Positions 18,744-31,141 of a stretch of DNA of 64,000 nucleotides are shown here, in pieces. Origin of the DNA: a phage; NCBI GenBank assembly GCA_016658885.1, contig GCA_016658885.1_4807.1; one strand, given 5' to 3'. The translations under genes were made by a program, and so were the position numbers. The notes below the pieces were generated by a model that was not told where the DNA came from, did no database searches, and saw only the letters and a list, made by a program, of their open reading frames with translations. Positions within the stretch are counted from its first letter, which is position 1. Each line of letters opens with the position of its first letter.

Positions 18744-18770
18744 GACCCACACTTGTTGTGGGTCTTTTTT
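18744..18770 (+). terminator. rho-independent terminator
   Basis: gacccaca-cttgt-tgtgggtc followed by tttttt. Confidence 0.7.
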
Positions 18771-18848: not shown

Positions 18849-19844
18849 ATGAACATGAAACAACCTGTAATGATTATCGGCGGCGGATTGGCAGGACTTA
18901 TCACAGCGTGTCACTTCCCGAACTCTATTGTGTACGAAGCAGGGGAGCGAGCGCAACAGCACAAGGCGCTGCTACGCTTTCGCGGCGAAGAAGTAAGCCG
19001 TATTACCGGAATCCCTTTTAAGGCCGTGACAGTTGACAAGGCTGTGTATTTTCGCGGCAACTACTACCACGACCATTGCCCAATCAACCTTGCCAATATG
19101 TATTCCATGAAGGTCACCAATCAATTTGGCAGCCGTTCAATCATGAAGCTTAAGACTGCAACGCGTTATATTGCGCCTGACGACTTTTATGATCAGCTTG
19201 TCGACAAACTGGGTGACCGCATATTCTTTAATACTCCGGTCGATACTCTTTGCGGCTATAGCGAGACGCCAATCATCAACACGTCGCCGCTGCCAGTCAT
19301 GATGAAGCTGGCTGGTATTGATCAGAATCTTGACTTTTCATTCGATAAAGCAAACATTCGCGTTTACCGCTTTAAGATTAAACGTAAGTGTGAACTTTAT
19401 CAAACCATTTACTTTCCTGACTACTCCGTCAGAACTTACCGCGCTTCAATCACTGGCGACACATTGATCATTGAAACAATTCCTTTGGTTAGCGTAAGTG
19501 AAGCCGCAGTTGAAGCCGCTGGCGGCATTACTCGTTACCGTGACATTAAGTTGCGTGCAGAAGTTGACGAAGTGTTGACGGCCTTTGGTCTATCATGGAG
19601 TGACATCGCTCTCGAAGAAGTTGAGAAGGTCGACCAGAAGTATGGCAAGATTGTCGACATTCCGAAAGACTTGCGACACGCTCTACTCCTACAACTTACC
19701 ATGGATTTGAACGTGTTTAGTGTCGGTCGCTTTGCTACCTGGCGAAACATTTTGCTTGATGACGTTGCTCATGACCTTGTTGAAGTTGAAAAACTCATCA
19801 AAGCAAATAACTATCAAAAATTTGCTTATATTGCTAATAAATAA
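18849..19844 (+). CDS. putative FAD/NAD(P)-binding oxidoreductase
   Basis: 331 aa; N-terminal Rossmann dinucleotide motif VMIIGGGLAGL; start may be second ATG at 18855. Confidence 0.45.
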   Translation: MNMKQPVMIIGGGLAGLITACHFPNSIVYEAGERAQQHKALLRFRGEEVSRITGIPFKAVTVDKAVYFRGNYYHDHCPINLANMYSMKVTNQFGSRSIMKLKTATRYIAPDDFYDQLVDKLGDRIFFNTPVDTLCGYSETPIINTSPLPVMMKLAGIDQNLDFSFDKANIRVYRFKIKRKCELYQTIYFPDYSVRTYRASITGDTLIIETIPLVSVSEAAVEAAGGITRYRDIKLRAEVDEVLTAFGLSWSDIALEEVEKVDQKYGKIVDIPKDLRHALLLQLTMDLNVFSVGRFATWRNILLDDVAHDLVEVEKLIKANNYQKFAYIANK

Positions 19845-19910: not shown

Positions 19911-20357
19911 ATGAAACGCATCACTGGAATCGCTCTTGCCGCAACTGCTATTCTCGGCACCATGTATATGGAAGCGACTGAAGCCGCTGTCCGTACTTCC
20001 GATTCAATCGCCGTGTATGATTGCGAAGCGATGGACGGTAAAACCGCAGCAACCACTGGCGCAACTATCACGGCTTACATCGGCGTGAACGAGCAAGAAG
20101 GTCTGAATATTCAGATTCAAGGATTCACAGGGAAAGGTGCCAACCGTACTCCGTGGATGCAGCGTTTCACTTTCGTTCAGCCTCGTTCAACTGGCGGCTT
20201 TATCAACTTGATTGGTGAAAACCGTTCTGGTGCAGAAATCTTTACATCAATGAGTTCTAATAATGAACCAAAGAAAAGTTTTCAGTTGCTTTATAACGCA
20301 CAATTCGTTTATCATTGCACCTTCTCTGGTGATCAGCAACTAGTGAATTACCGTTAA
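19911..20357 (+). CDS. predicted secreted protein
   Basis: 148 aa; AAGAGGAAA SD; N-terminal signal-peptide-like MKRITGIALAATAILGTMYMEA. Confidence 0.5.
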   Translation: MKRITGIALAATAILGTMYMEATEAAVRTSDSIAVYDCEAMDGKTAATTGATITAYIGVNEQEGLNIQIQGFTGKGANRTPWMQRFTFVQPRSTGGFINLIGENRSGAEIFTSMSSNNEPKKSFQLLYNAQFVYHCTFSGDQQLVNYR

Positions 20358-20370
20358 TAGGATAATTAAA

Positions 20371-21174
20371 ATGAAAGTTGAATTAATTCGATACACCCAA
20401 GATGCACTTGACCTTTTGCTGGAAACAAAGAACACGCGCATGACTGGTAAGCCCGTCTCTGAGATGACAGAATCAGAGAAGCAAGAGCACTGGCGCTATA
20501 TGCTTGACACCATCAAGTCACCTTTTGACTTTGTGGACTATATCTTTGATATCACTGATGTATCAAAGAACATGACCCATCAGATGGTACGCACACGCAC
20601 AGGCGCATATCAAGAACGCACCAGCCGCGCGCAGGAGTCATCTGCTTTTGATGCGATTCGTCCGAAAGCGTTTGAGTATGACGACCCTGACAGGGTTATC
20701 GGCGAGCGAATCGACGAGCAGCGTTTGAAGTTGGCTAACACATGGGACGACGCCATGGCGACCATTGACGCCCTATACCAAGAACTTCGCGCGGCTGGCG
20801 CAGAGATTCAAGATGCACGTGCCGTTTTGCCTTCTAATATGCAAACTCATATCATGGCAAAGTTCAACTTGCGCACGCTGCAACAGATGGCGTCAAACCG
20901 CTTGTGCACGCGCACACAAGGCGAGTATCAAGAAGTATTTCGCGCAATGGTTGCGGAAGTCCTCAAGGTGCACCCGTGGGCTAATCCTTTACTACAGCCG
21001 CAATGCATCGGTATGGGTAAATGCGCGTTTCCTCGTCACGGCAAAGCCCATTGCCCTTGGTATCGTGATTGGATGGATACTACGGCACAGCAAGAAGAGT
21101 TGCGCATCCAGTTTTGGAATGCGATGCCAATCACCAACAATCCAGTTGCTAAAGATGGAGTATCAAAAGGATGA
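20371..21174 (+). CDS. ThyX-family (flavin-dependent thymidylate synthase-like) protein with variant motif
   Basis: 267 aa; C-terminal DARAVLPSN...NLRTL...NRLCTRTQGEYQEVF resembles ThyX; expected RHR(x7)S signature reads RTRTGAYQERTS. Confidence 0.5.
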   Translation: MKVELIRYTQDALDLLLETKNTRMTGKPVSEMTESEKQEHWRYMLDTIKSPFDFVDYIFDITDVSKNMTHQMVRTRTGAYQERTSRAQESSAFDAIRPKAFEYDDPDRVIGERIDEQRLKLANTWDDAMATIDALYQELRAAGAEIQDARAVLPSNMQTHIMAKFNLRTLQQMASNRLCTRTQGEYQEVFRAMVAEVLKVHPWANPLLQPQCIGMGKCAFPRHGKAHCPWYRDWMDTTAQQEELRIQFWNAMPITNNPVAKDGVSKG

Positions 21175-22043
21175 GCATTAAAAACAGCGAAATCTTAAAC
21201 GTATTCGACCTTGACGGAACGCTGTTTGATGATCGTTGGCGCTTAGACCGCATTAAGGTGGCAGGTCCGTTGTCAGACTATGATGATTATCACAGCGGTA
21301 TTGGTTATGATCAGTTCTATCCTCACATTGCATCAGCAGTAGAGTCGGCATCTCTTCGCGGTGAGGCGGTTGAATATTGGACTGCAAGGCCAGAAAAATA
21401 CAGACAAGTGACTTTTGAACGTCTGGACAATGTTTTTCCTTTTGATGAATTTACAATCAAGATGAGAGACTATGGCGACAAACGTACATCAACTATTATG
21501 AAATCTGCATGGCTATCGCACGCTTTGCGGCACGGCGATTATCGAATCATCAATGTATTCGACGACCGACAAGACGTACTCGCGCGGATGCAAGATGAAG
21601 CATTGTATTATAATTCCGTTGCTCAAAATAAAATCGCTTTTACATTTAATCTTTGCAAGGCAGGTGAAGTGGTGCAACAATTAGCAATTGATCCAAGCGC
21701 AACAGGGCAAGAAGAGACTAAGGCTGTGGAAGTTGAACAATCTCCGGCAACTGCCGCCGATATTCTTGATGCAATGGCAGCAACCTTCCGTGAGCGCAAC
21801 GCTGTCTATGGCGATAACGCTGTGATGGTAGGTCAGGTTATGCAAGTGCTTTTCCCTAATGGCGTGACGTTGAAAACGCCGGAAGACTACCACATGTGGC
21901 ATCTGTTCGAGCTTAAGATTGTCAAGCTTACACGCTTCGCAATCAGCGGCCTGAAGCACGAAGACTCTATACACGATGATGGTGTTTACAGCGCCATGTG
22001 TGAACGTCTTGTTAACACCCATAATATTAATTTCAATAAATAG
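21171..22043 (+). CDS. HAD-superfamily phosphatase-like N-domain fused to unknown C-terminal domain
   Basis: 290 aa; motif I VFDLDGTLFDD, later FDDRQD; ATGA overlap with upstream gene. Confidence 0.45.
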   Translation: MSIKNSEILNVFDLDGTLFDDRWRLDRIKVAGPLSDYDDYHSGIGYDQFYPHIASAVESASLRGEAVEYWTARPEKYRQVTFERLDNVFPFDEFTIKMRDYGDKRTSTIMKSAWLSHALRHGDYRIINVFDDRQDVLARMQDEALYYNSVAQNKIAFTFNLCKAGEVVQQLAIDPSATGQEETKAVEVEQSPATAADILDAMAATFRERNAVYGDNAVMVGQVMQVLFPNGVTLKTPEDYHMWHLFELKIVKLTRFAISGLKHEDSIHDDGVYSAMCERLVNTHNINFNK

Positions 22044-22888: not shown

Positions 22889-23440
22889 ATGCCACATTTT
22901 AAAATTGAACAAATCGCCCTGTCAATTCCAGGTGCTCAGCGCGCACAGAATTTCCTGGCTAAAATCGGCCTGACAGAATGGTTCCATGATCACGTTGTTG
23001 CTACTGGTCGCGTATTTGAAGCTGATGTCTTTAAGGGTCAGCGCGGCGATTGCACCAACGAAGCTGACTTGCGCTTCAACTATCAGGCTGGCAACGGCAC
23101 CGATGGCGGCGCTGGTAAGCCTCTTGAGCTTGAAATTCTTGACTATACAAAAGGTTGCAACTGGATTCACGAAAACATCGAATACATCGATGCGCACGAC
23201 AATCAGGTTAGCCATCTTGGTATGCACGTGACTGCCGCTGAACTTGCTGAATGGCGCAAGTTCTTTAAAGAAGAAGGCATTCAGGTTGCGCAGGAAGTTG
23301 TGACCGACTCTCACACCAACCCAAACATTGCTGGTCAGCGTCGTTACAACTATGTAATCTTTGATACTCGTGAAATCATCGGTGTCGACCTTAAATTCAT
23401 CGTACGGTTGAATCAAGACGGTACTCCGTACACTGTATAA
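22889..23440 (+). CDS. hypothetical protein, possible VOC (glyoxalase-like) fold
   Basis: 183 aa; two-half pattern (KIEQIALSIPG..., HLGMHVTAAE..., YVIFDTREIIGVDLKFI) loosely resembling VOC modules. Confidence 0.3.
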   Translation: MPHFKIEQIALSIPGAQRAQNFLAKIGLTEWFHDHVVATGRVFEADVFKGQRGDCTNEADLRFNYQAGNGTDGGAGKPLELEILDYTKGCNWIHENIEYIDAHDNQVSHLGMHVTAAELAEWRKFFKEEGIQVAQEVVTDSHTNPNIAGQRRYNYVIFDTREIIGVDLKFIVRLNQDGTPYTV

Positions 23441-23456
23441 CGAATCGTGAATCTGT

Positions 23457-23481
23457 GGCCGTCCTAATGGGCGGCCTTTTT
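23457..23481 (+). terminator. rho-independent terminator
   Basis: ggccgtcc-taat-gggcggcc followed by ttttt, just before RBS of exonuclease gene. Confidence 0.55.
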
Positions 23482-23494
23482 GTAGGAGGCCAAT

Positions 23495-24037
23495 GTGTTA
23501 TTTCTCCCTTATGACTTCGAAACAACCGGATTAACCGTGCACCCGAAAGCGCCGCTTGGGATGCAGCCGCGCCCTATTGAATTTGCAGGTCTGTTGACAG
23601 ACGGCAAAGAGATTCTTGAAACTTTTGAGTTCATAATTAATCCTGAAATTGTGATTGAAGAAATCATCACAAAGATTACCGGATTAACAAATGAAGACCT
23701 TGAGTGCAATCCACCATTCATCAATTTCGTTCCGCAGCTAAAAGAAATATTCAAGAAGACGGATGCAACTATCGCGCACAACCATGCATTTGATAAAAAC
23801 ATTCTTGATTATGCACTACAGCGCGAAGGACTTACACTTGATGATGTTAATTTCCCAGAAATAAACATCTGTACAGTTGAGCAAACCTTGCCTATTTTTG
23901 GTCGAAGAGTTAAGCTTCAAGAGCTGTATGAATTATATTTCGGAAAATATGAACAGAAGCACCGTGCATTAGACGACGTAATATTACTGCACAAAGTCTG
24001 CCAACAAATTGGCGTATATGACATCTGGAGTAAATAA
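23495..24037 (+). CDS. DnaQ-like (DEDDh) 3'-5' exonuclease, likely proofreading subunit
   Basis: 180 aa, GTG start after TAGGAGG SD; Exo I DFETTGL, Exo II HNHAFD, Exo III HRALDD. Confidence 0.7.
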   Translation: MLFLPYDFETTGLTVHPKAPLGMQPRPIEFAGLLTDGKEILETFEFIINPEIVIEEIITKITGLTNEDLECNPPFINFVPQLKEIFKKTDATIAHNHAFDKNILDYALQREGLTLDDVNFPEINICTVEQTLPIFGRRVKLQELYELYFGKYEQKHRALDDVILLHKVCQQIGVYDIWSK

Positions 24038-24499: not shown

Positions 24500-27400
24500 A
24501 TGTCATTTCCACAACTAAGAGTTAGAAGCGGATATTCATTTAAAGAAGTTTACGGAAGGATGCCTGAAATTTGCTCGCGTCTAATTCAACTTAATTGTCA
24601 CGCGGCAGCGATAGTTGATAACAATACTTGGTGTCACGTTCGCTGGGAAAAGGAATGCCAGAAAAATGATATTAAGCCTATGTTTGGAATGGAGATTCCA
24701 ATCATCGACCCTGATGCGGACCCGAAAAAGGGATTCAAACCGAAGGCTTGGATATTGGCCCTTGACCTGAAATCCTTTTACAATGCGACCACGCTTGCAA
24801 CACAGCGCGGCGGATTGACCCGTGCAGAGTTCGGGGCGCTCGATGGCGTCGTTAAATTCTGTGGCGGGGCCGTGGAGTTGCTGCGGCCAGAGGACTACGA
24901 TTATATAGACGTCAACCCATCATCGTTCCTTTTGGCCAAGCGCCAGGTATTGGCTCACCGCAGCAACGGAAGGCCGCTGGTTTTAACCGGATACAATCAC
25001 ATGCCTTCACCTGAGCACGTTGACTTTGCTTATGCGTGGGAAGTTCGCGACACGGTTAAGCCGCACTGCATCGTTGACGCGGAAGACTTGCGCAAACAGC
25101 TTAAAGGAATCTTAACCGAAGATGAGTTGAATCAAGCAACTGCCAATGCGGTTGACATTGCAAATGGAATCGTTGGGCTTGACCTGAAGCTGCGCAAGGC
25201 GCCGATTATCCACCTTGCTGGTGACATGGTAAAACTTGCTCGTGAGGGTATGGAGTACCGCCTTAAGGCAGGTCACATCAAAGAATGGACTCAGGAATAT
25301 GAGGACCGATTCAACGAAGAGATTCATCAGATTCAGCTAAAAGATTTCGACTCATACTTTCTTGTTGTAGCGGACCTTGTACGATTTGCAAAAACAAAAA
25401 TGCTCGTCGGACCTGCTCGCGGCTCATCGGCTGGTTCACTGGTTTGTTATTGCCTCGGCATCACGGAAGTTGACCCAATCCCGTATAAGCTGCTATTTGC
25501 CCGATTCATCGACGTAAGCCGCGCCGACCTCCCTGATATTGATATTGACTTTGAGGACACCAAACGCTATATGGTGTTTGATTACCTTAAAGAAAAATAC
25601 GGCGAAATGAACGTTGCAAAGCTTGGCAACATCAACACGCTTAAGGCCAACTCAGTAATGGCTCAGGTTGGTAAGAAGTTCAACATTGGATATCACGAAA
25701 CGGCCAACATTAAAAACGCATTGCTTGAATACTCATCTGGTGACGCCCGTTATGGTCACGGTCTGGAGGATACCTTTGCAACAACGACCACGGGCCAAGA
25801 GTTTGTGGCTAAATATCCCGATGCCGCGCGTTGCATGGGTGACCTTGAGATTCACCCGTCCCACACAGGTGTTCACGCAGCGGGAATTATTGTGTGTAAT
25901 GACCCAATCTCTGATTACTGTACGGTAACAGCGGAAGGGATTGCACAAATTGATAAGCCTGACAGCGAATACCTTAACCTTTTGAAGCTTGATGCGCTGG
26001 GCCTTCGTACCCTCGGCATCATTTCTGATACTGGCGTGATAGATGCTGAAACGCTGTACGGCATAAAGCTTGATGATCAAAGCGTCCTTGACATCCTTAA
26101 CGAAAACAAGATGTCAGGCATCTTCCAGTTTGAAGGCGATGCTGTACGCTCAGTGACCAACTTTGTGCACGTTGATAACTTTAACAAAATCGATAACCTG
26201 ACAGCACTTGGTCGACCTGGCCCGTTGTCATCCGGTATGGCCCAGAAATACATTGAACGCGCGGCAGGGCGTGCGCCGATTGAATACGACGTGCCGCAGC
26301 TTGAGCCGTACTTAAAAGAGACTTACGGCGTGTTTCTTTACCAAGAGCAAATCATGGCCGTGGTTAAAGAGATTGGTTCATTCGACTGGGCGAAAACATC
26401 CGCTGTACGCAAAGCGATGTCAGGCCGTAAGGGTGAAGAATACTTTAACAAGCTTGGCGAGGACTTTGTTGCAGGCGCAATCAATAACGGCGTACCGGAA
26501 GCGGACGCAAGAAAACTTTGGCAAGCGATGGCAACGTTCGGGTCATGGGGCTTTAACAAGTCACACTCCGTGTCATACGCGGTCGTGACCTACTGGACCT
26601 TGTGGCTTAAGCGACACTACCCGTTGGAATTTGCCGCAGCCTGCTTACGCGCTGCTAAGGACGAAGACCAGACGATTGCGATACTACGTGAACTTGCGAA
26701 GGAAGGCGTGGATTATGTGCCAATCGACCCTGATCACTCTTCAATGAACTGGACCATCGCGAACGGAAAGCTAATCGGCGGCATCATGAACGCGAAAGGA
26801 TACGGAATGGTGAAGGCAATGAAGTATATCGAAGCGCGTGAAGCCGGAACCTTAACGCAAAAGCAAAAGGACGCATTGGCCAATGCTGAAGTCAAATACG
26901 GCGACCTTACAGAGATGCACACAAAGTTCGGCTGGGCGTATAATGACCCGTATCTGATTGGCGTGACTTCCGGCGCTTCAATACGCCAGATGAAGGAAGT
27001 CGGTGATGACGAGCGTGCAATAGTAATCGGCAAGTTGACAAAGAAAGTGCTTGCAGACGAGAACGAAGCGACACGCATCCGTAAACGACTTGAGCGCGGC
27101 ATCTATACAAAGCACGGCAAGCTTAAAAAAGGTCTTCAAGCTGATGGCCGCTACGCCGAGTTTGACCAGTACGGGAACAAGCTTGAGACTCAGTTCATCG
27201 ACCTTATGTGCAAAGACGACTCGACAGACTCGCCAATGCGCTTCAGGATTCGTCCAGAAAAGTTCCAGAAGTACGGGAAATACATTGCTGAAAACGTCGG
27301 TAACGGCGCATTCTTCCTGATGAAAGGTCGTAAGCTTGAAGGCATTGACATGTTCATCGTCGACGTTATCAAACAGGTGTATCCAGATGGCAACAAATAA
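24500..27400 (+). CDS. DNA polymerase III alpha-like (DnaE family) replicative polymerase
   Basis: 966 aa from ATG at 24500 (GGAGG SD); PHP-like N-terminus; ARGSSAGSLVCYCLGITEVDPIPYKLLFARFID matches conserved DnaE segment. Confidence 0.7.
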   Translation: MSFPQLRVRSGYSFKEVYGRMPEICSRLIQLNCHAAAIVDNNTWCHVRWEKECQKNDIKPMFGMEIPIIDPDADPKKGFKPKAWILALDLKSFYNATTLATQRGGLTRAEFGALDGVVKFCGGAVELLRPEDYDYIDVNPSSFLLAKRQVLAHRSNGRPLVLTGYNHMPSPEHVDFAYAWEVRDTVKPHCIVDAEDLRKQLKGILTEDELNQATANAVDIANGIVGLDLKLRKAPIIHLAGDMVKLAREGMEYRLKAGHIKEWTQEYEDRFNEEIHQIQLKDFDSYFLVVADLVRFAKTKMLVGPARGSSAGSLVCYCLGITEVDPIPYKLLFARFIDVSRADLPDIDIDFEDTKRYMVFDYLKEKYGEMNVAKLGNINTLKANSVMAQVGKKFNIGYHETANIKNALLEYSSGDARYGHGLEDTFATTTTGQEFVAKYPDAARCMGDLEIHPSHTGVHAAGIIVCNDPISDYCTVTAEGIAQIDKPDSEYLNLLKLDALGLRTLGIISDTGVIDAETLYGIKLDDQSVLDILNENKMSGIFQFEGDAVRSVTNFVHVDNFNKIDNLTALGRPGPLSSGMAQKYIERAAGRAPIEYDVPQLEPYLKETYGVFLYQEQIMAVVKEIGSFDWAKTSAVRKAMSGRKGEEYFNKLGEDFVAGAINNGVPEADARKLWQAMATFGSWGFNKSHSVSYAVVTYWTLWLKRHYPLEFAAACLRAAKDEDQTIAILRELAKEGVDYVPIDPDHSSMNWTIANGKLIGGIMNAKGYGMVKAMKYIEAREAGTLTQKQKDALANAEVKYGDLTEMHTKFGWAYNDPYLIGVTSGASIRQMKEVGDDERAIVIGKLTKKVLADENEATRIRKRLERGIYTKHGKLKKGLQADGRYAEFDQYGNKLETQFIDLMCKDDSTDSPMRFRIRPEKFQKYGKYIAENVGNGAFFLMKGRKLEGIDMFIVDVIKQVYPDGNK

Positions 27401-29403: not shown

Positions 29404-29667
29404 ATGGTACGCATCCTTGAACGTTACAAAAATGAAGCTACTGGCGCAATCGCGTTCAAACGTCTTTTGGTCAAAGAAATTGACGGTCTGTTCCGCGTTG
29501 TAAAAGAGTTTGATTATGGCAACGTTGCTGGGGTGAATACCGTCATTATGCCTGGCATCAAGGCATATAAAACCTTAAAAGGCGCTGAGAAGGCTTTGGC
29601 GGCTTGGAAACCTGAACGTTATCAAATGACCCGTGTTGAAGGTCTAATGCAAGAAGGTAAAATATGA
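29404..29667 (+). CDS. hypothetical protein
   Basis: 87-aa ORF. Confidence 0.45.
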   Translation: MVRILERYKNEATGAIAFKRLLVKEIDGLFRVVKEFDYGNVAGVNTVIMPGIKAYKTLKGAEKALAAWKPERYQMTRVEGLMQEGKI

Positions 29668-30221
29668 GTAATATTAATTGGGAAGATGATTTGCCGCAGG
29701 TCGCTCCTGAGAGCATTCAAGAGCGCCTTGCGCGCTTAGTGTCTGAACTGGCAGAACGCCAAGAAGCTTTGACAAAGCTTGAAGATGAAGCTGATGTGCA
29801 AAAGCAGCGCATCAGTGAAATCAAAACTGTTCTGCTTCCTGGCGTTATGGATGAGCTTGGCGTGTCTGAAATCAAGCTTGAGGACAAGACCAACATCAAA
29901 GTCGAGTCAAAAGTTAATGCTTCAATTAAGAAAGAAAATGAATTGAAGGTATTCGATTGGCTTGTCAACAACGGTTACGGCGGCTTGATCAAGTCCAGCG
30001 TCACAGCTGAGTTTGGTCGCGAAGAAATCGAGCAAGCGCAAGAGATTGTTGCCGCGCTGCGTGAAGACGGTGTTGAAGCCACGTTGAAACAAGGCGTTCA
30101 TTCTGCTACACTGAAGTCATTTGTAAAAGAACAGCTGGAAGCGGGTAATCCAGTTAGTGAATATATTAGCGTTTTTGAGTATAAAGAAGCTAAAATAACC
30201 TTGCCTAAAAGCAAAAAGTAA
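29664..30221 (+). CDS. hypothetical protein with N-terminal coiled coil
   Basis: 185 aa; ATGA overlap with upstream gene. Confidence 0.45.
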   Translation: MSNINWEDDLPQVAPESIQERLARLVSELAERQEALTKLEDEADVQKQRISEIKTVLLPGVMDELGVSEIKLEDKTNIKVESKVNASIKKENELKVFDWLVNNGYGGLIKSSVTAEFGREEIEQAQEIVAALREDGVEATLKQGVHSATLKSFVKEQLEAGNPVSEYISVFEYKEAKITLPKSKK

Positions 30222-30280: not shown

Positions 30281-31141
30281 ATGTCTAAGAAAGAAACTAC
30301 CGAAGTTGCAGTGAAAAACACCCAGATGTCCGCTATGGCTGATTTTGTCGATATGACCGATTTTGGCGCTGGTTTTGAAGGTGCCGATGCCGACGCTTAT
30401 GCCATTCCTTTTATCGTCGTACTGCAAAAGATGTCTCCGATGGTCGACGAAGATGATCCAAAACACGTGCCTGGCGCAAAAGCTGGTATGTTGTACAACA
30501 CCGTTACTGGTGAATTGTATGACGGCAAGAAAGGTGTGCAGATCATCCCTTGCGCATTCAAACGCACCTTCATTCTTTGGGGCGGTCGCGAGTCCGACGA
30601 TAAAGGCTTTAAAGGTGAATTCACCAAAGAGCACGTTGATGCAGAAGTCGCGGCAGGCCGCGCTGTTGAGATCAACGGTAAGGTATTCGTGCCGGACGAA
30701 AACGGCAAGGTGCACGAGAAGAAATCTCCTTACTACGCAGATACACGTAACCACTTCGTGATTCTGTTGAACGAAGAAACTGGTGAATTTGGTAGTGCAA
30801 TGCTGTCTCTGACTTCTTCCATGATCAAGCCGTCTCGCATGCTGATGACCGCTCTGCAGCAGAAGAAAGTTCAGACTCCGCAGGGTCTGAAAACTCCGCC
30901 GACCTTTATGAACATCGTTCGCATGGGTACTGCGTCTCAGTCCAAAGACGGCAACACCTGGTCCGTCCTGAAGTTTGAGCTGGAAGGTCTGGTGCAGGAC
31001 AAAGGTCTGTATGAAGTCGCCAAGGCATTCCACAACGACGTAGTTGGCGGTAACGTTAACATTGACCGCAGCAAGCAGGAAGAAGCAAGCGGTGCCGCTG
31101 GTCCTGTCAATGAAACTCCGACCGACGCAGAAGAGTTTTAA
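30281..31141 (+). CDS. hypothetical protein (possibly DNA-binding/recombination-associated by context only)
   Basis: 286 aa; no motif recognised. Confidence 0.45.
   Translation: MSKKETTEVAVKNTQMSAMADFVDMTDFGAGFEGADADAYAIPFIVVLQKMSPMVDEDDPKHVPGAKAGMLYNTVTGELYDGKKGVQIIPCAFKRTFILWGGRESDDKGFKGEFTKEHVDAEVAAGRAVEINGKVFVPDENGKVHEKKSPYYADTRNHFVILLNEETGEFGSAMLSLTSSMIKPSRMLMTALQQKKVQTPQGLKTPPTFMNIVRMGTASQSKDGNTWSVLKFELEGLVQDKGLYEVAKAFHNDVVGGNVNIDRSKQEEASGAAGPVNETPTDAEEF

Follow-up and report, generated by a model that had tools for sequence, protein, structure and literature searches.

The flavin-dependent thymidylate synthase ThyX serves as a model for the mechanism of flavin-mediated methylene transfer and is also a target for drugs, and the canonical enzymes with which the gene described here is compared are those of Thermotoga maritima (TM0449) and Mycobacterium tuberculosis (Rv2754c). 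For the latter, Ulmer et al. are said to have defined in 2008 an 'extended ThyX motif' made up of Y44, H69, R95-H-R, S105, R107, Y108 and R199. In solved ThyX structures the RHR motif forms hydrogen bonds with flavin adenine dinucleotide (FAD), at the adenosine monophosphate phosphate and at the ribityl/phosphate portion, and not with the pyrimidine, and its first arginine also touches the isoalloxazine (PMC6514825). In T. maritima, R78, R147, R174, Q75, R80 and R90 are the residues that bind deoxyuridine monophosphate (dUMP) and the flavin (PMC3498832, PMC11940539). H53, held in place by Y91 and N85, stacks either on the pterin of folate or on reduced isoalloxazine; Y91, like S88, is described as critical and strictly conserved, and its mutation slows flavin oxidation about 1000-fold (PMC11940539). 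We analysed a 64,000-nucleotide stretch of phage DNA (contig GCA_016658885.1_4807.1 of GenBank assembly GCA_016658885.1; hereafter the window), in which an open reading frame (ORF) at 20371..21174 had been predicted from the letters alone to encode a ThyX-like protein whose RHR signature reads RTR. The ORF is exact and encodes a genuine phage ThyX-family protein, a known kind of gene, whose most likely function, with a probability of roughly 0.6, is that of a working flavin-dependent synthase of deoxythymidine monophosphate (dTMP). It falls in a phage subfamily without the equivalents of H53, H79 and Y91, accompanied by flavoprotein and HAD partners and carrying a four-cysteine module; this signature, these partners and this module are so far undescribed in the literature that we searched.

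The features of the gene on which the argument turns are as follows.

20371..21174, plus strand: ThyX-fold flavin-dependent thymidylate synthase homologue, ATG start, 267 residues (Pfam, AlphaFold2, Foldseek)
20512..20532, plus strand: I48 to F54 (within TIKSPFDF), both ends non-histidine (register check, column counts)
20590..20598, plus strand: R74-T75-R76 (cgc aca cgc), equivalent of the ThyX RHR (HMMER alignment to solved structures, codon reading)
20614..20631, plus strand: E82-R83-T84-S85-R86-A87, with R90 kept, S88 as Thr and Y91 as Ala
20905..21054, plus strand: four-cysteine module, C179 (R177-L-C179) and C212-x5-C218-x9-C228 (co-occurrence)

Over residues 5–203 the protein matches Pfam PF02511 (Thy1) with 104.9 bits, the gathering score being 24.8 (E=6e-30), and it matches the PHROG family phrog_85 'thymidylate synthase' with E=1.6e-38; a Pfam scan of its C-terminal tail at E≤10 gave no match. 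An AlphaFold2 model built with 119 homologues as input has a mean pLDDT of 95.2 and a pTM of 0.90, and in the PDB Foldseek matches it best to structures of T. maritima ThyX (probability 1.00, about 20% identity, query TM 0.62, target TM 0.75). The window belongs to Wifcevirus, a group of Escherichia coli/Shigella myophages, and is 96% identical in nucleotide sequence to phage WFH over 4.7 kb. Its ThyX is 99.3% identical to the ECML-117 homologue and 90–99% identical to the other Wifcevirus ThyX proteins, and in the GenBank records of these relatives the gene is already named a (FAD-dependent) thymidylate synthase. PB1-like phages (Pbunavirus), which are used therapeutically, carry an orthologue with 49–51% identity (PB1 ORF59, the 'thymidylate synthase complementing protein', annotated as ThyX in GenBank); the PB1 and Wifcevirus proteins share RTR, the four cysteines and gene neighbours with that of the window.

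Alignment with HMMER to the solved structures places R74-T75-R76 opposite R78-H79-R80 of T. maritima and R95-H96-R97 of M. tuberculosis, and the predicted replacement of histidine by threonine is thereby confirmed in its position. Set against the RHR(x7)S motif, the string RTRTGAYQERTS picked out in the original prediction reads RTR-X8-S: the residue at the strict X7 position is Thr84 (so that the hydroxyl is kept), Ser85 stands at X8, and R86, the equivalent of R90, is present. The C-terminal blocks that had been picked out (DARAVLPSN, NLRTL and NRLCTRTQGEYQEVF) are all found and contain the conserved R150 and R177. The Thr75 codon (aca, 20593–20595) differs from those for histidine (CAY) at at least two bases, which makes a single sequencing error at this position unlikely. 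RTR is moreover present in 120 of the 120 nearest database homologues, down to about 53% identity, all of which read Q-[LMF]-V-R-T-R; homologues with RTR span phages of Serratia, Erwinia, Pantoea, Burkholderia and Xylella as well as about 290 Pseudomonas PB1-like phages.

Among more distant relatives the middle residue varies freely. An exhaustive HMMER search of 1.84 billion cluster representatives returned 1666 relatives, and in the best 150 of these the two arginines of R-x-R enclose T, H, S, N, Q, A, Y or K. In an alignment of 119 sequences, to which all column counts below refer, position 75 is T in 76, H in 28, S in 6 and N in 6, in addition to Q, Y and K. Parsimony on a neighbour-joining tree of the same sequences requires at least 23 changes at position 75, compared with three at R76 and none at R74, R150 or R177, and near relatives with otherwise identical active sites and the same gene context read RHR, RNR or RSR. 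Because position 75 is labile, because RHR contacts FAD and because the residues that read dUMP are kept, the change from histidine to threonine alone gives no ground for a new substrate or product. The middle histidine is a cofactor-anchoring residue, rather than a substrate-reading or chemical one, and a hydroxyl side chain can plausibly take its place. RTR is thus a lineage trait of low diagnostic value and is not peculiar to the Wifcevirus phage. No assayed ThyX without the motif histidine could be identified. A set of long R-Q-R proteins (about 520 residues) was considered as possible chlamydial ThyX, which would have supplied an assayed enzyme lacking that histidine; their sequences instead resemble actinophage 'ThyX-like' proteins.

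The register of the remaining active-site residues was obtained by counting from R78 and by re-alignment. Each line gives the T. maritima residue (with its M. tuberculosis equivalent in brackets, where assigned) and then that of the window protein.

H53 (H69): I48
H59 (H75): F54
Q75: Q71
R78: R74
H79 (H96): T75
R80: R76
E86: E82
L87: R83
S88: T84, with Ser85 next
G89: S85
R90: R86
Y91 (Y108): A87
R147: R150
R174: R177
H178: R181

The phage protein and the canonical enzymes therefore share, besides their fold, a framework of R-x-R...(S/T)-x-R...R...R in which Q75, E86 and all the arginines that contact dUMP or the flavin are retained. R74, R150 and R177 are invariant in the alignment, Q71 and R76 are each found in 116/119 sequences and R86 in at least 95%, and E82 is present in the window protein; the substrate-binding arginines do not vary even across sequences that are just 26–40% identical. 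What differs is that, at about 20% identity, H79 is Thr, H53 Ile, H59 Phe, Y91 Ala, S88 Thr and H178 Arg, such that the phage ThyX has no equivalents of M. tuberculosis H69, H96 and Y108. By column, position 48 is I in 87 sequences and H in 13, position 54 is F in 101 and H in 11, and position 84 (the equivalent of S88) is S in 65, T in 41 and A in 12; Tyr occupies position 87 in just 14/119. Two active-site types can be recognised: a canonical minority (9/119) with H48/H54/H75/Y87, and a majority with I, L or V at position 48, F at 54, T, H, S, N or Q at 75 and A, V, T or I at 87.

The original prediction had taken RTR as a hint of an altered substrate or chemistry. A substrate such as deoxycytidine monophosphate (dCMP) is not supported, given the retention of Q71, E82, R86, R150 and R177, which recognise the uracil ring and the phosphate group of dUMP. 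Methylation of dCMP or of a ribonucleotide in place of dUMP does have a precedent of sorts in PolB, the UMP/dUMP C5-methylase of polyoxin biosynthesis, which shares the ThyX fold, shows that this fold can shift its substrate and take on a non-standard role, and is among the structural matches to our model (4p5b, TM 0.64/0.73). However, R86 (R90) and R177 (R174), which contact the uracil carbonyls and which one would not expect to find in an enzyme specific for cytosine, are 96–100% conserved; the match to PolB at the level of sequence is marginal (phmmer E=0.14 to 4p5a, of the PDB pair 4P5A/4P5B); and the phage gene lies in a DNA-replication module, whereas PolB belongs to a Streptomyces antibiotic cluster. 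We regard such a change of substrate as highly improbable.

We scanned one genome for each of 185,579 species with a pattern derived from 19 sequences. This returned 10 loci, all of them on contigs of metagenome-assembled genomes (MAGs) from scattered phyla, and these contigs carry phage replication genes (an epsilon exonuclease and a PolIIIα-type polymerase). The I48/F54/non-Tyr87 subfamily appears to be essentially virus-restricted.

A further departure from the canonical enzymes is a C-terminal extension with three cysteines that co-occur with C179. The codon for C179 is at 20905–20907, two residues past the uracil-binding R177, and those for C212, C218 and C228 lie within 21004–21054; the C-x5-C-x9-C element falls in the confidently modelled extension, outside the Pfam domain. 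In 118/119 related ThyX sequences the four cysteines are all present or all absent, P0231 and P0252 have the same spacing, and members of the canonical H/H/H/Y type carry them too. The pattern makes these cysteines a candidate site for Zn, an Fe-S cluster or a disulfide next to the active site; nothing on metal sites or Fe-S clusters in ThyX came up in a literature search. Two other observations concern the architecture of the protein. The loop at residues ~101–125 (20671–20745) reads EYDDPDRVIGERIDEQRLKLANT in the window and EHPSDCNDENAFDDVHIRHHSLAEK in phage Bas99, which is wholly different, while the remaining protein is nearly identical; the loop is a hypervariable or mosaic segment in an otherwise conserved enzyme. 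In two relatives (P0171, 637 residues; P0158, 428 residues) the ThyX domain is split into an N-terminal piece of about 70 residues and a distal C-terminal piece, the pattern expected of intein-containing thyX genes.

The gene stands in a terminator-bounded cassette upstream of the replicase. The curated annotation of phage Mansfield also places ThyX inside such a unit, and hairpin-T-run terminators are found at the same places in the window.

18744..18764, plus strand: intrinsic terminator upstream of the cassette, 8-bp stem and T6, annotated at the same place in Mansfield
18849..19844, plus strand: partner flavoprotein, 331 residues, fold of UDP-galactopyranose mutase (UGM) and amine oxidases, GxGxxG N-terminus, phrog_4828
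19911..20357, plus strand: 148-residue ORF between the partner and ThyX, signal-peptide-like N-terminus (MKRITGIALAATAILGT...)
21171..22043, plus strand: HAD protein (PNKP-phosphatase-like; Pfam HAD_PNKP, E=7.7e-8; phrog_4889) with a helical C-terminal domain of about 85 residues
22109..22792, plus strand: short-chain dehydrogenase/reductase (SDR, FabG-like; Pfam adh_short, E=1e-31), accessory
22889..23440, plus strand: 183-residue glyoxalase/VOC-fold protein, accessory, a weak assignment (Pfam Glyoxalase_4, E=0.09; Mansfield annotation)
23457..23476, plus strand: intrinsic terminator downstream of the cassette, 8-bp stem with 7 GC pairs and T5, annotated in Mansfield
23561-24034, plus strand: epsilon-type 3'-5' exonuclease (Pfam RNase_T)
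24500-27397, plus strand: PolIII-alpha-type DNA polymerase (annotations, tblastn synteny)

The order within the cassette is thus flavoprotein, 148-residue ORF, ThyX, HAD phosphatase, SDR, a small ORF and the glyoxalase-fold protein. The partner flavoprotein has no Pfam match even at E≤10 (GLF and NAD_binding_8 included) and no match in a sequence search of the PDB. Its AlphaFold2 model (pLDDT 86) resembles UGMs best and then monoamine oxidases, with TM values of about 0.6 and 10–13% identity. The N-terminal GxGxxG...E is invariant, as is the motif HKALLRFR, and a further motif reads GRFATWRNxLLDD. The family has about 1900 members, essentially all of them phage or metagenomic 'hypothetical protein' entries.

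The partner accompanies ThyX well beyond Wifcevirus. In PB1 it is 41% identical and lies upstream of ThyX, several small ORFs intervening; in podophage Ss1 it overlaps ThyX by 4 nucleotides; and all nine informative MAG loci have it, usually ending no more than 50 nucleotides from the ThyX start. In the Rhizobium jumbo phage TM30 it is 2.4 kb upstream of ThyX, the HAD and C-terminal-domain protein is 2 kb downstream, and genes for dUTPase and ribonucleotide reductase adjoin. Within a collection of 50,697 phage records the partner occurs in 362 (Pseudomonas 292, Escherichia 27, Serratia 9, Rhizobium 8, and others), groups and counts that match those of the ThyX subtype, and groups whose phages carry ThyX of another type (Gordonia 38, Mycobacterium 32, Bacillus, Clostridium, Streptomyces, Sulfolobus) hardly figure among these 362. 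Three control loci are without it: Mycobacterium phage Gumball and Gordonia phage Lila22, both R-Q-R, and Moorella phage MTATph1, which has RHR with H/H/Y. Since the partnered ThyX genes have T, H, N or S at position 75 and the controls have no partner, the flavoprotein tracks the I48/F54/non-Tyr signature and not RTR. Most of the partnered loci nevertheless represent a single broad lineage in which the PolIIIα replication module is syntenic, so that gene order may in large part simply have been inherited. Because the whole block through PolIIIα is syntenic in the MAG loci, these alone are weak evidence; TM30 has the only clearly different architecture among the partnered loci found. A search for Rosetta-stone fusions of ThyX with the partner, HAD, SDR or VOC proteins yielded none, and the extra domains of long ThyX homologues gave no informative Pfam match.

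The start of the HAD gene overlaps the ThyX stop by 4 nucleotides, and the position of HAD downstream of ThyX is conserved; the link between HAD and this ThyX subtype extends to PB1-like phages, podophage Ss1, TM30 and the nine MAG contigs. Its C-terminal domain (~21780–22040), which has no Pfam match at E≤10, is better conserved than the HAD part, with 68% identity to MAG locus L005 and 48% to TM30; the Ss1 HAD protein has a different C-terminal domain. The SDR is present in loci L003, L005 and L011 and the VOC-fold protein has homologues in L003 and L005, and both are missing from PB1. The 148-residue ORF, for which we found no family match (its Pfam scan at E≤10 was empty), is a Wifcevirus-only insert with homologues just in loci L001 and L013 and is probably a moron. 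The exonuclease and PolIIIα genes are syntenic with the cassette in all related loci (tblastn), the polymerase lying about 3 kb downstream of ThyX. Further along the window, 29664–30218 encodes a Pam3 gp33-like protein (DUF7307) and 30281–31138 a Pam3 gp34-like one; in MAG loci L004, L006 and L011 their homologues stand directly upstream of the flavoprotein-ThyX pair and not after the helicase. Gumball (L016, 3162–3872) and Lila22 (L017, 2256–2948) encode SDR homologues 28–30% identical to that of the window, which adjoin genes for a PolIIIα polymerase, a nucleotidase, a MazG protein and the R-Q-R 'ThyX-like' protein; SDR, ThyX-like and PolIIIα genes are therefore a recurrent combination across very distant phages.

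Synthesis of dTMP is the most likely function on account of the invariant dUMP- and flavin-binding arginines, the adjacency of the replicase, the dUTPase and ribonucleotide reductase context in TM30, a MazG-like pyrophosphatase annotated in the same genome, and the very rapid replication that has been reported for phages of this group (PMC11990801), which would call for ample deoxythymidine triphosphate. The placement of the gene among replication and nucleotide genes is likewise that of canonical ThyX. We infer FAD binding, dUMP as substrate and dTMP as product, as well as any role of the partner. In this scheme a ThyX-fold enzyme with bound FAD would bind dUMP and methylate it at C5, and the resulting dTMP would supply the phage's own PolIIIα-type replicase. 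R-T-R would be this lineage's version of the FAD-phosphate-binding RHR, the two arginines doing the conserved work and the threonine able to hydrogen-bond a phosphate. The H53/Y91 'gate' of T. maritima has been replaced by Ile/Ala in the virus-restricted subfamily, and flavin reduction, delivery of the folate or one-carbon unit, or supply of substrate might be organised differently, possibly with help from the partner, the product still being dTMP. The loss of the H53-Y91 pair, together with the co-inheritance of a flavoprotein, hints that flavin reduction, gating or one-carbon delivery may differ.

Several points weigh against a standard thymidylate synthase. The protein scores 81.4 bits with TIGR02170, the NCBI equivalog model for thyX, below the curated cutoff of 87.9; three residues reported to be important are missing, H53 being Ile and Y91 Ala among them; a plain thymidylate synthase has no obvious need for a dedicated second flavoprotein; and the literature searched held no assay of any member of the subfamily and no experimental report on any Wifcevirus or Pbunavirus ThyX. 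The missing residues of the extended motif and the low equivalog score would also fit a catalytically dead or repurposed ThyX fold, for example a dUMP- or FAD-binding regulator kept for its structure. Against this stand the invariance of the substrate-binding arginines across such divergent sequences and the size of the subfamily, which counts hundreds of members in the compact genomes of lytic phages. Such a picture is typical of an enzyme under purifying selection, and we consider loss of catalysis very unlikely. The suspicion of altered chemistry, which had been derived from RTR, finds little support in that labile, FAD-contacting position, yet the view that the phage ThyX departs from the textbook enzyme gains support from other features, namely the loss of H53, H59 and Y91, the TIGR02170 score of the window protein below the cutoff, and the conserved UGM-fold neighbour of an almost virus-only subfamily.

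One form that such a departure could take is a neofunctionalised ThyX, which would still bind dUMP and carry out flavin-dependent methylene transfer but release a different C5 product, such as 5-hydroxymethyl-dUMP formed by hydration of the exocyclic methylene. In a variant of this scheme a short pathway with the UGM-fold flavoprotein and HAD, joined in Wifcevirus by SDR and VOC, would make a modified pyrimidine that protects the DNA. The losses of H53 and Y91, the conserved terminator-bounded cassette, the co-occurrence of the UGM-like protein and the ThyX subtype in the same groups of phages and the persistence of the linkage in the different phage family of TM30 are all consistent with a changed product. 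There is also a precedent in the phage ThyA homologues of RB69, DLP3 and RL38J1, which are flavin-using 5-hydroxy-dCMP synthases encoded near HAD phosphatases and, in RL38J1, a UGM (PMC13326640). Those enzymes, however, have the unrelated ThyA fold and their clusters include glycosyltransferases, kinases and a canonical UGM, whereas the annotations of the Wifcevirus relatives contain no glycosyltransferase, no 5-hydroxymethyldeoxyuridine kinase and no other DNA-level modification enzyme, and the window partner is without a Pfam match and only distantly similar to UGMs. SDR and VOC are absent from PB1, the genes that adjoin in TM30 are those of dUTPase and ribonucleotide reductase, and in most loci vertical synteny of a single replication module can explain why the cassette genes are neighbours.

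Restriction data bear on the same question from both sides. Phages Bas98–101 of the BASEL collection resist all tested restriction systems except EcoP1_I, by a mechanism of protection that is unexplained (PMC11990801), and a modified base could be the cause. In the window itself several sites are rarer than expected (observed/expected: GATC 99/247, CCGG 71/179, GTAC 123/247, BamHI 0/13, EcoRV 5/18), and the HindIII site AAGCTT is threefold commoner (57/18). Such avoidance suggests DNA that is exposed to restriction and not globally hypermodified, and the depletion of GATC, CCGG and GTAC together with the sensitivity to EcoP1_I argues against global base replacement. Taking these lines together, we think a changed C5 product unlikely, though clearly less so than a changed substrate or a dead enzyme.

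We hold it to be similarly doubtful that ThyX, the UGM/amine-oxidase-fold flavoprotein and HAD constitute a virus-specific two-flavoprotein system, making either dTMP independently of folate and NADPH or a new C5-modified deoxyuridylate. The partner would then supply the reducing equivalents or the one-carbon unit once handled by H53/Y91, for instance through release of formaldehyde or an iminium in the manner of an amine oxidase, or alternatively would process the ThyX product further; in such a relay the four-cysteine module might serve as a redox or metal site. If this were true, the new C5-modified deoxyuridylate could underlie the restriction resistance of Wifcevirus.

If, on the other hand, the enzyme is an ordinary dTMP synthase in every respect, RHR should not be treated as diagnostic in the annotation of viral ThyX. 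Current mechanistic schemes for ThyX lean on H53, S88 and Y91, and hundreds of phages carry members of a large natural subfamily that lacks H53, H79 and Y91. Either dTMP can be made without these three residues, or the subfamily carries out another reaction.

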